A stretch of DNA of 64,000 nt. It comes from an uncultured Acidobacteriota bacterium (lineage in GTDB: Bacteria > Acidobacteriota > Thermoanaerobaculia > Multivoradales > UBA5704). Below the pieces are notes generated by a model that did not search any database, was not told the DNA's origin, and saw only the letters and a list, made by a program, of their open reading frames with translations. Positions within the stretch are counted from its first letter, which is position 1. Every line of letters begins with the position of its first letter. The DNA is taken from the NCBI GenBank assembly GCA_963700145.1, contig OY969474.1, positions 2,944,001 through 3,008,000 of the forward strand. Reading direction: 5' to 3'. Positions 9,631 to 30,721 of the stretch are shown here, one piece after another. The translations under genes and the position numbers were made by a program.

Positions 9631-10578
9631 ATGCCTCACCCTGCTTCGACCGCGCTGGCGTTCGTCGCCCTGACCGCCGCCGCGGCGACGGCCGCCTTCG
9701 CCAACGGGCCGGCCGCCGCCCCCGACGCGCAGGGGCTGTGGGTCGGCCACGTCGTGCATAAGCGGGGAGAGGTGGAGCTGGACCTCGTCGTCGAGCTGGG
9801 GCGCGCCGCCGACGGGGGTCTGGTGGGAACGATCGACTTCCCCGTCCGCAACATCCTGTTCCACCCGCTCGACGGCGTGCGCCAGGAGGGCCGGGAGATC
9901 ACCTTCACCTTCAACTGGCACAACCCCGAGATCGACAAGCAGGAGTCCGCCCCCTTCAGCGGCACCCTCTCGGCCGACGGGCGGACGTTCGAGGGGCTGA
10001 TGACCGACGACGGCACCCCCCTGCGCTTCGAGCTGCGGCGCCTCGGCCCTCCCGGGACCGACCGGCCGGTGCGGCCGGAGCAGCCGCTGGCCGCTCTCGG
10101 CGCCGCGGCCAACGAGCTGCGCGCGGCGTTCAACCGCGACGCCGATCACCCGCGCCTGGTGCTGCTGCTCTCGCCGACGTGATGGATCTGCCTGATGAGC
10201 GCCCGGGTGGTGCAACGCTACGTGCTGGACGACATCGCCGACCCGCGGCTGCGGGTCTACATGGTCTGGGGGCCGATGCTGGACAAGGAGACGGAGGCGG
10301 ACGCGCGCCACGCCACCACCTTCATCCAGGACCCGCGGCTGACGCACTTCTGGACCGACTCGGACGGCGTGGCGGAGCGGTTCAAGGCCCCGCTCGGCCT
10401 GACCACCGCCGACGCCTGGGACACCTACCTGCTGTTTGCGCCGGGCATCCGCTGGACGGAGGAGGCGCCGCGGCCGTCCTCCTTCATGCACGTCGGCAAG
10501 CCGCTGCCGAAGGAGCGGCGTTTGAACGCCGTCACGCTGGCCGCCGAGGTGCGCGCCGCCCTTGCCGGCGCGCCTTGA
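9631..10578 (+). CDS. Probable exported thioredoxin-fold selenoprotein (UxxC; Sec at TGA 10180-10182), 315 aa
   Basis: ORFs 9631-10182 and 10195-10578 are in the same frame; read-through gives RLVLLLSPT-U-WIC-LMSARVVQ...LRVYMVWGPML; N-terminal signal peptide; small hairpin 3' of the TGA. Confidence 0.8.
10199..10213 (+). promoter_or_regulatory. Candidate bacterial SECIS apical stem-loop
   Basis: GCGCC-CGGGT-GGTGC; loop starts 21 nt after the UGA and has G at position 2. Confidence 0.45.

Positions 10579-30721: not shown

Follow-up and report, generated by a model that had tools for sequence, protein, structure and literature searches.

Redox helper proteins are known to be encoded within natural-product gene clusters. 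DepH (FK228), GliT (gliotoxin) and HlmI (holomycin) are cluster-encoded dithiol oxidases, which depend on flavin adenine dinucleotide (FAD) and serve both maturation and self-protection. Clusters for peptide antibiotics encode dedicated extracytoplasmic thioredoxin (Trx)-like proteins, such as BdbA/BdbB of sublancin, those of the glycocins and PedC of pediocin, which set the thiol/disulfide state of the exported ribosomal peptide. Bacterial Trx-fold proteins with selenocysteine (Sec) are also known and include Trx-, peroxiredoxin (Prx)-, DsbA- and glutathione peroxidase (GPx)-like proteins; they have cysteine (Cys) homologues, and the Sec insertion sequence (SECIS) lies immediately downstream of the Sec codon. 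To our knowledge, none of them is tied to a biosynthetic gene cluster. Here we describe a selenoprotein gene (9631-10578) that directly precedes a gene for a non-ribosomal peptide synthetase-polyketide synthase (NRPS-PKS) in a stretch of 64,000 nucleotides (positions 2,944,001 to 3,008,000 of contig OY969474.1), hereafter called the window, from an uncultured Acidobacteriota bacterium of the Thermoanaerobaculia. The selenoprotein belongs to an unnamed family that is a near-obligate neighbour of one NRPS-PKS type in uncultured soil Acidobacteriota. We propose, with a probability of about 0.5, that it is a periplasmic seleno-oxidoreductase acting on a thiol of the NRPS-PKS product; a thiol-oxidoreductase function is suggested by the fold, by the genomic context and by the way in which the gene tracks a Cys-type module.

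The window protein shares features with several known groups. Like TlpA, ResA, CcmG and DsbE, it has a Trx fold whose first helix carries the redox motif at its N-terminus, and it appears by eye to be exported. In contrast to these proteins, it carries Sec in place of the first Cys, features an additional N-terminal eight-stranded barrel, lacks any Pfam match, and occurs in the context of secondary metabolism rather than of cytochrome or copper maturation. It resembles the sublancin, glycocin and pediocin enzymes as a dedicated, putatively extracytoplasmic Trx-like protein of a peptide cluster, and one Cys-form homologue adjoins LanM and LanT; those enzymes, however, are Firmicutes Cys proteins that serve ribosomal peptides, whereas an NRPS-PKS, Sec and a barrel are found here. 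DepH, GliT and HlmI are cytoplasmic flavoenzymes with the thioredoxin-reductase fold. The window protein, in contrast, is predicted to be exported and has a UxxC centre, and Pfam reports no pyridine-nucleotide disulfide oxidoreductase/FAD domain in it or in the scanned neighbours. With the known Sec-containing Trx-fold proteins it shares Sec at a redox-active position, Cys homologues and a downstream SECIS. Cluster-encoded redox helpers are known already, but a selenoprotein in such a role is unreported in the literature searched: a full-text search, the coverage of which excluded roughly 1.7 million PMC articles and supplements, returned no pairing of a selenoprotein with an NRPS-PKS. Within the same coverage there were no papers on the ten-residue adenylation codes of the locus or on DUF5916, and nothing relevant for Thermoanaerobaculia and NRPSs.

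Evidence for selenocysteine decoding, and predicted fold of the selenoprotein

The open reading frames 9631-10182 and 10195-10578, both on the forward strand, share a single frame and are split only by the TGA at 10180-10182. Read-through of this codon yields a protein of 315 residues featuring the motif LLLSPT-U-WIC, and the true stop of the gene is the TGA at 10576-10578. An earlier note on this DNA, made from the sequence alone, had taken this UxxC gene for a genuine selenoprotein gene, and sequence comparison bears this out: the TGA aligns with an invariant Cys, a SECIS-like hairpin tracks the Sec forms, and both selB and tRNA-Sec are present. In Cys-type homologues, the residue at the TGA position is the invariant first Cys of the motif SP[TRGN]-C-x-x-C. 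All DNA fetched contains 37 distinct genes of the family, 26 with TGA and 11 with TGC or TGT at the Sec column. Protein matches were obtained in 26 of the 41 related genomes searched, and most of the full-length ones have exactly one TGA, the others none. The search for Sec machinery in the genome of the window (5.46 Mb, one contig) covered selB and tRNA-Sec and detected both (361.8 bits against a cut-off of 242, and 70.3 bits against a cut-off of 47, respectively).

The exact 15-nt element GCGCC-CGKGU-GGUGC is found at +20 to +34 in 25 of the 26 Sec forms, and the remaining form keeps all five pairs through two-sided changes (GUGCC...GGCAC). Just one of the 11 Cys forms carries the element. 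Within the hairpin, third codon positions, which are synonymous, are conserved in 24-25 of 25 sequences, compared with 10-21 of 25 further downstream, and the RNAalifold consensus is exactly the stem of the hairpin at 10199-10213. The stem emerged only from the comparison of the 26 Sec forms; the fold of the single sequence 10175-10250 is no better than that of shuffled sequences (z 0.94). RNA data were available as short contigs from three soil metatranscriptome runs, in which uncovered parts carry no meaning. One such contig spans 10078-10403; it shows three differences to the window sequence, all of which lie outside the TGA. Public gene calls cut the Sec forms at the UGA into N-terminal pieces of about 183 residues and C-terminal pieces of about 125 residues (P0002-P0006, P0110-P0166). 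Many family entries end at the Sec position or begin immediately behind it; the Sec forms are evidently split by gene callers, and the family is therefore invisible in annotations as a selenoprotein family.

No family was matched by the selenoprotein in either Pfam (E<=0.01) or NCBIfam; the Pfam models Redoxin, AhpC-TSA and Thioredoxin/Thioredoxin_8 are among those that do not match. The AlphaFold2 model, obtained from a 28-sequence alignment (predicted local distance difference test, pLDDT, 92.4), consists of a low-confidence helix (residues 7-22), the barrel and the Trx fold, with U184 and C187 at the start of a helix. In the VIA comparison with 48,161 PDB representatives, residues 152-315 are nearest to ResA, M. 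tuberculosis DsbE, the C-terminal domain of DipZ and TlpA-like chains (Z 12.1-12.6), the ResA/DsbE/TlpA-like matches having root-mean-square deviations of 2.5-3.2 over 123-132 residues. GPx, Prx and Sco chains match the same part with lower scores (Z 10-11.4). Residues 25-139 are nearest to small ligand-binding barrels, such as Cap15, avidins and designed barrels (Z 10-11.8). Foldseek matches in the PDB are weak and mixed (E about 3e-4, TM 0.2-0.3), and the best offering of a profile search against the PDB is Pyrococcus PDO (E 0.0055, 43 residues). The Cys form P0007 is nearest to TlpA/Redoxin clusters in the Atlas (scores 0.85-0.87), which is to be taken as a lead only. The N-termini of the window protein, P0007, P0009 and P0010 look, by eye, like signal peptides of the secretory Sec type. 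An exported Trx-fold protein, as originally suggested, thus agrees with both the predicted TlpA/ResA-like fold of the family and the putative signal peptide.

In the alignment, W263 is invariant and D264 nearly so; they are followed by T265, and precede strand 265-269, while P280 and P282 are invariant. The conserved WDT may lie at the position expected for the cis-Pro loop. The family is of appreciable size: a Cys-form profile, compared with 1.84 billion proteins, retrieved 1936 representative clusters at E<=1e-10, and 220 at the stricter limit of E<=1e-30. Shorter homologues, consisting of the Trx domain alone (~150-310) and each having one in-frame TGA, were noticed in four genomes (G013, G022, G039 and G034).

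A Prx/GPx-like peroxidase, or a protein for metal handling, is an alternative reading. The thiol peptide would then be a metallophore or a redox shuttle, and Sec would serve either to detoxify peroxide or to reduce a bound metal and set it free. The GPx, Prx and Sco matches fit this view, as does P0090, a distant relative of 708 residues featuring three Trx-like repeats of the selenoprotein family and an HMA domain; moreover, the conserved AWDTF occupies what we take to be the place of the GPx WNF motif. Yet TlpA-like chains outscore those of GPx, Prx and Sco, a vicinal UxxC is typical of dithiol-disulfide exchange, and the window encodes neither a TonB-dependent receptor nor a metal transporter. 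We regard a peroxidase or metal-handling role as distinctly improbable.

Linkage of the selenoprotein gene to Cys-type assembly lines

The surroundings of the family were analysed in flanks from related genomes and in a scan of species-representative genomes, using the NRPS domains of the window and a profile of adenylation (A) domains. The species-representative scan identified 34 distinct loci, all of them in metagenome-assembled genomes; the labels of these genomes are Thermoanaerobaculia, Holophagales or Acidobacteriota and, in one case, 'Deltaproteobacteria'. Among the 37 distinct homologues, 33 have an NRPS/PKS domain within 2 kb, and for 27 of these it begins on the same strand, at most 300 nt downstream. 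The other arrangements vary. In L079, the domain starts 1.6 kb downstream, behind a hydrolase gene. Four homologues (L062, L068, L087 and L081), two of which have almost no downstream DNA, directly follow a gene ending in ketosynthase-acyltransferase-acyl carrier protein-thioesterase (KS-AT-ACP-TE), and L074 is convergent to a PKS-TE gene. L076, with a downstream flank of 148 nt, is uninformative, and no NRPS is found within 8-10 kb of L083, L056 and L054. Two orthologues are 88-91% identical to the window protein, the homologues otherwise 35-55%, and the partner synthetases vary in the number and order of modules; the pairing is therefore not one inherited block.

The partner lines have one A domain in common. 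Seventeen lines could be traced to the end or over a sufficient length, and 16 of them contain a domain with the code DLYD.SL[VI]W (the window, G004_C58, the own-genome paralogue, G004_C62, G010, G026, G009_C278, G012, G009_C144, L064, L066, L071, L062, G041, G043 and G042). As in the window, the NRPS part of 14 of the 16 lines closes with a module that carries this domain in uninterrupted form, and KS-AT-ACP-TE comes next. The exception among the 17 lines is G023, a FAAL-PKS line. L073 also has a DLYD.SL[VI]W domain, which is in the first module, and G043 features the codes DLYDCSLVW and DLYDLSLVWK. In G042:C2 (L085, L109), the NRPS after a Cys-form homologue is broken across frames, in a manner that looks like long-read indel errors, and its last code is legible only in part (DLYD..LIW).

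The genome of the window provides an internal control. It contains five NRPS or hybrid clusters, and the selenoprotein gene is found at exactly the two that carry DLYDFSLVWK. No selenoprotein gene accompanies the cluster that ends in Ser-KS-AT-ACP-TE or the two others, whose Lys2-like A domains have the codes DPRNFVHRAK and DPRHFGFQAK. The second cluster with a selenoprotein gene is larger (G000:C1:1,513,541-1,545,600; L099, L040 and L098) and encodes a Sec paralogue 54% identical to the window protein. It comprises, in order, a three-module NRPS, an amidohydrolase, a DUF5916 protein on the minus strand, a TAP-like hydrolase, the selenoprotein and an NRPS ending in DLYDFSLVWK-KS-AT-ACP-TE. As seen from sequence comparison, the selenoprotein gene travels with the Cys-type module, usually before KS-AT-ACP-TE.

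That the adjacency might be coincidental had been conceded at the outset, and syntenic baggage in NRPS-rich genomes would have the same appearance. These genomes hold very many NRPS genes, and the relatives, being kin, are not independent samples. On the other hand, the 27 immediate same-strand adjacencies involve homologues of low identity and synthetases of varied architecture and include both paralogues of the own genome, in which NRPS/PKS genes make up about 3% of the DNA, as estimated from coordinates. Coincidence is effectively refuted by the own-genome control and by the adjacency counts over 37 genes, and its probability appears negligible.

The assembly line and its predicted product

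Features of the locus are listed in Table 1. The NRPS-PKS consists of five condensation-adenylation-thiolation (C-A-T) modules followed by KS-AT-ACP-TE, with no reductive domains between AT and ACP according to Pfam and motif searches. All five NRPS modules are of uniform length, and C, A, T, KS, AT and TE are the only domains reported by Pfam. The NRPS motifs HHxxxD[GA], SGSTG.PKG and GGHSL occur five times each, and the PKS and TE motifs are TACSTS/HGTGT/NIGH (the KS triad being intact), GHSIG/HAFH, GGSSL and GASMGG. The single KS-AT-ACP and the GHSIG/HAFH of the AT, which we take to be a malonyl signature, agree with the one malonyl extension after A5 that had been suggested. Codes of A domains were placed by GrsA numbering through motifs and were checked against alignments with BmdB and PchE.

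Table 1 Coordinates of features of the selenoprotein/NRPS-PKS locus in the window
Feature	Position	Strand	Code or motif	Basis and remarks
DUF5916/CBM9_1 protein gene	7007..9439	-		Pfam; divergent from the selenoprotein gene
Selenoprotein gene	9631..10578	+	SPT-U184-W-I-C187	Putative signal peptide ~1-24, barrel 35-139, Trx fold 153-312
In-frame UGA, Sec codon	10180..10182	+		Homologue alignment, SECIS-like hairpin, selB, tRNA-Sec
SECIS-like hairpin	10199..10213	+	GCGCC-CGGGU-GGUGC	20-34 nt from the U of UGA; comparison of Sec forms
NRPS-PKS gene (6719 aa)	10562..30721	+		Start TTG 10562 or GTG 10586; Pfam and motif scans
Module 1 (starts of C1, A1, T1)	10643, 12038, 13577	+	A1: DALWLGGTFK	Val predicted from the code
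Module 2 (starts of C2, A2, T2)	13850, 15293, 16871	+	A2: DLFNNALTYK	Ala predicted from the code
Module 3 (starts of C3, A3, T3)	17147, 18527, 20057	+	A3: DAWFLGHVVK	Leu-like as predicted from the code
Module 4 (starts of C4, A4, T4)	20342, 21761, 23402	+
A4, Lys2-like A domain	21761..23400	+	DPRHFVYRAK	Lys2-like by code; TIGR03443; AHDP replaces FDxS
Module 5 (starts of C5, A5, T5)	23675, 25085, 26678	+
A5, Cys-clade A domain	25085..26677	+	DLYDFSLVWK; SGDWIP, GGATEA..WS	Cys-like as predicted from the code; no methyltransferase interruption
PKS module and TE (starts of KS, AT, ACP, TE)	26936, 28514, 29762, 29972	+

Two A domains deserve attention. The best NCBIfam match of A4 is TIGR03443 (473.8 bits, profile positions 266-834), which scores 176-197 bits with A1, A3 and A5. 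The match is below the whole-protein cut-off of 1030, and the full Lys2 architecture (A-T-R) is missing; with AHDP in the place of FDxS, A4 is nonetheless Lys2-like, as had been recognized. DPRH-type codes are also found in Lys2 and in microcystin synthetase (iso-Glu module), which activate side-chain carboxyls. The best solved matches of the A5 pocket region are BmdB (100.8 bits, DLYNLSLIW) and PchE (95.8 bits, DLFNLSLIW), both Cys-activating, followed by FmoA3, in line with the proposed Cys-like assignment. A5 and BmdB agree at six of the nine aligned pocket positions and differ by N278D, L299F and I330V. In L066, a DLYD code occupies a first module that in sister clusters bears a Ser code together with the same FkbM-type insert; this swap fits a small side-chain nucleophile as the substrate, and Cys is the likely substrate of A5. 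When the whole A4 and A5 domains were compared with the PDB, the multi-domain LgrA dominated the matches, which revealed little on substrates.

In relatives, the A5-type code is also present in A domains with embedded methyltransferases. Two kinds of methyltransferase-interrupted A domain were observed (L064:10862-13699, L066:6203-9040, L112, L118, L119 and L128). In the first kind, an FkbM-type insert follows the A core in first modules, which have the Ser code or, in L066, DLYD. In the second, a SAM-MT insert is located early within DLYD-type A domains of lines that have no selenoprotein. Heterocyclisation (Cy) domains before the DLYD modules of relatives, which would have fixed Cys as the substrate, were looked for and not found: the C domains there are of the usual HHxxxDG kind, and an embedded methyltransferase accounts for the extra length. 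The window NRPS opens with an ordinary-looking C domain (10643-11970; HHAAADG; ~50-56% identity to the internal C domains). The cluster encodes no upstream donor module, whereas a three-module NRPS lies upstream in the paralogous cluster; this makes any prediction of the product's N-terminal part tentative.

The succession of A4 and A5 had led to the idea that the two genes are linked by a gamma-Glu-Cys or delta-aminoadipyl (Aad)-Cys core. The product would be a peptide-tailed thiol mimicking glutathione or the aminoadipyl-cysteinyl-valine tripeptide (ACV), and the selenoenzyme would service its isopeptide-thiol core. As in ACV synthetase and Lys2, a domain best matched by TIGR03443 is present, and the Cys-type A5 directly follows it in the window; side-chain carboxyl activation by DPRH-type domains would suit the idea, and the window's own product may contain a delta-Aad-Cys or gamma-Glu-Cys unit. 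Unlike ACV synthetase and Lys2, however, the line has five modules plus a PKS module, and there is no Aad-Cys-Val order, epimerization (E) domain or reductase domain. Furthermore, the adjacency is lost in the orthologous cluster of G004, the selenoprotein of which is 90% identical: its order is Val-Ala-Leu-DPRN-Gly-DLYD, so that a module of Gly type (DILQLGLIWK) separates the A4- and A5-type modules. DPRH/DPRN domains are found in four of the 17 traced partner lines and are absent from 13. The DPRH module of G012 and G043 leads into a PKS module, not into Cys, and only one of the three own-genome NRPS clusters with Lys2-like A domains carries a selenoprotein gene. Since the A4/A5 adjacency is not conserved, a gamma-Glu-Cys/ACV core fails to explain the pairing, and as the link between the two genes we consider it improbable. 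Of the co-occurrence anticipated in the earlier note, the recurrence of NRPSs with a Cys-type A domain held, but that of a Lys2-like A domain directly before it did not. The Lys2-like type is itself recurrent in the lineage, the own-genome domains in other clusters being located at G000:C1:434240 and 3371290.

Under the seleno-oxidoreductase reading, the cluster would have three components: the divergently encoded DUF5916/CBM9 envelope protein, the exported selenoprotein and, translationally coupled to the latter, a five-module NRPS with a minimal PKS module and a thioesterase. The line would assemble a pentapeptide of Val-Ala-Leu, an acidic residue introduced by the Lys2-like domain and a Cys-type residue, these substrates being predicted from the codes. 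One malonyl unit would be added to the last residue, and the product would leave the line as a beta-keto acid or in a cyclised form. Its thiol would stay free because A5 has no methyltransferase. The secreted selenoprotein could bind the small, partly hydrophobic product in its eight-stranded barrel after export, and the TlpA-like UxxC centre could then exchange with the product thiol. The outcome would be either a disulfide, serving maturation or self-protection, or a thiol kept reduced in the oxidising periplasm; Sec would act as a fast nucleophile and leaving group.

Several observations weigh against this proposal. These genomes contain many Cys-type DLYD domains, frequently with no selenoprotein gene nearby, and the association is one-directional. 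For instance, eight of the 22 relatives with a DLYD pocket have no homologue at E<=1e-3 (G002, G005, G007, G015, G017, G020, G027 and, apart from a barrel-only match, G019), and G010 has five DLYD-type domains and one selenoprotein gene. Four distant Cys forms (L083, L056, L054 and L078/G023) are not accompanied by an NRPS carrying a DLYD domain. The genomes are NRPS-rich, with more than 130 A-domain matches in both G041 and G043; this raises the background of adjacency, though not that of immediate same-strand adjacency in 27 loci, and the kinship of the relatives limits the counts here as well. The structural neighbours of the Trx part act on proteins, not on small molecules. Three of nine pocket positions of A5 differ from BmdB, and its specificity for Cys is thus not proven. 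The NRPS frame starts at TTG 10562, overlapping the selenoprotein gene by 17 nt, or at GTG 10586, after a gap of 7 nt; this spacing and 259-nt metatranscriptome contigs that span the junction (10410-10668) in two runs suggest co-transcription, but the contigs may stem from DNA or from one data set filed twice, and a single transcript is not provable from them. A claim of two-way co-occurrence was dropped, as the phylogenetic profile contains many Cys-type A domains without a selenoprotein.

Neighbouring genes and wider context

On rechecking, the description of the locus in the earlier note, including the gene ends, the overlap or 7-nt gap and the convergent operon on the right, proved accurate. 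The divergent gene on the left had been considered a mere boundary, but DUF5916/CBM9 homologues adjoin the selenoprotein gene in 11 further distinct loci (45-52% identity; 91% in two orthologous loci). The likely start of the DUF5916/CBM9 protein of the window is ATG 9439 (protein start MTRPSSLAVRLLLALLLLTVPAGAAA), which by inspection is signal-peptide-like, and its C-terminus is aromatic. Its AlphaFold2 model is poor (pLDDT 45.1), with a run of long antiparallel strands at residues 500-840; the strand pattern and the aromatic C-terminus make an exported outer-membrane beta-barrel plausible. An amidohydrolase, a TAP-like alpha/beta hydrolase and a major facilitator superfamily (MFS) transporter, none of them encoded in the window, also recur around homologues. 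The two-gene unit suggested before thus survives as a conserved selenoprotein/NRPS pair and is too narrow as a description of the cluster.

These envelope proteins could themselves be the targets. A TlpA/DsbE-type reductase or oxidase directed at proteins might fold or maintain the DUF5916 protein, the TAP-like hydrolase and the amidohydrolase, or provide self-protection by repairing periplasmic proteins damaged by a thiol-reactive product. All close structural neighbours are protein-directed extracytoplasmic oxidoreductases, and two Cys residues of DUF5916, C335 and C338, are invariant. The TAP-like hydrolase is moreover naturally fused to the selenoprotein family in two metagenomic proteins, P0024 and P0112. 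A protein-directed role leaves unexplained, however, why it is the Cys-type module with which the gene travels, and not NRPS clusters generally, why the barrel is of a ligand-binding type, and why a homologue occurs beside LanM without DUF5916; in addition, the window cluster encodes no hydrolase. We consider this role unlikely, if less so than the other alternatives. Fusion or read-through of the hydrolase with the selenoprotein family was seen in P0147 as well as in P0024 and P0112, and P0024 also contains DUF3471.

Contexts lacking an NRPS also involve export. In L083 (3878-10906), a Cys-form homologue lies 18 nt after LanM (DUF4135 and LANC_like), and a LanT-type C39-peptidase ABC exporter is encoded upstream. 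Other distant Cys forms without an NRPS sit with MacB-type exporters. As judged from the sequences, the common denominator of the contexts is exported peptides, which contain Cys where this is readable.

A further-reaching version of the seleno-oxidoreductase reading, which we put forward tentatively and at clearly less than even odds, is that this is the first selenoenzyme dedicated to a small-molecule natural product. The periplasmic Sec oxidoreductase, with a ligand-binding barrel of its own, and the putative outer-membrane protein DUF5916, joined in some loci by the TAP-like hydrolase, the amidohydrolase and the MFS transporter, would form an export-and-maturation route for acidobacterial peptide-polyketides of a class not described so far, which would have in common a free-thiol, Cys-derived beta-keto-acid warhead. 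If the protein tailors or guards a thiol metabolite, it would represent a new enzyme class for redox tailoring of natural products and provide a simple genome-mining marker for thiol-bearing products, one that automated pipelines miss by splitting the gene at the UGA. Heterologous expression would be predicted to fail, or to yield a different product, in hosts unable to decode the SECIS.

The window has a G+C content of ~75%. A terminator scan of 9300-11000 returned no terminator-like site, and promoter/terminator scans at both operon ends returned nothing; shuffled sequences gave none either, which makes these scans uninformative at this G+C content. Genes elsewhere in the window encode a PMT_2-type glycosyltransferase, an extracytoplasmic function (ECF) sigma factor and type II secretion/type IV pilus F and E proteins (4861-7032, 34093-34734 and 36083-38977). 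They have no conserved tie to the cluster; for the PMT gene, synteny extends no further than the two most closely related genomes. The right flank is a convergent lipopolysaccharide operon, which begins with an LpxL-like gene (30737 to about 31615) followed by lpxK and kdtA. The first gene encodes an LpxL/HtrB-like acyltransferase with the motif HIGFWE (30737-31615, minus strand), and its stop is located 16 nt past that of the NRPS. This gene was recognized by the phase of third-position G+C content (GC3); a simple ORF/GC3 filter misses it in favour of a longer spurious ORF in frame.

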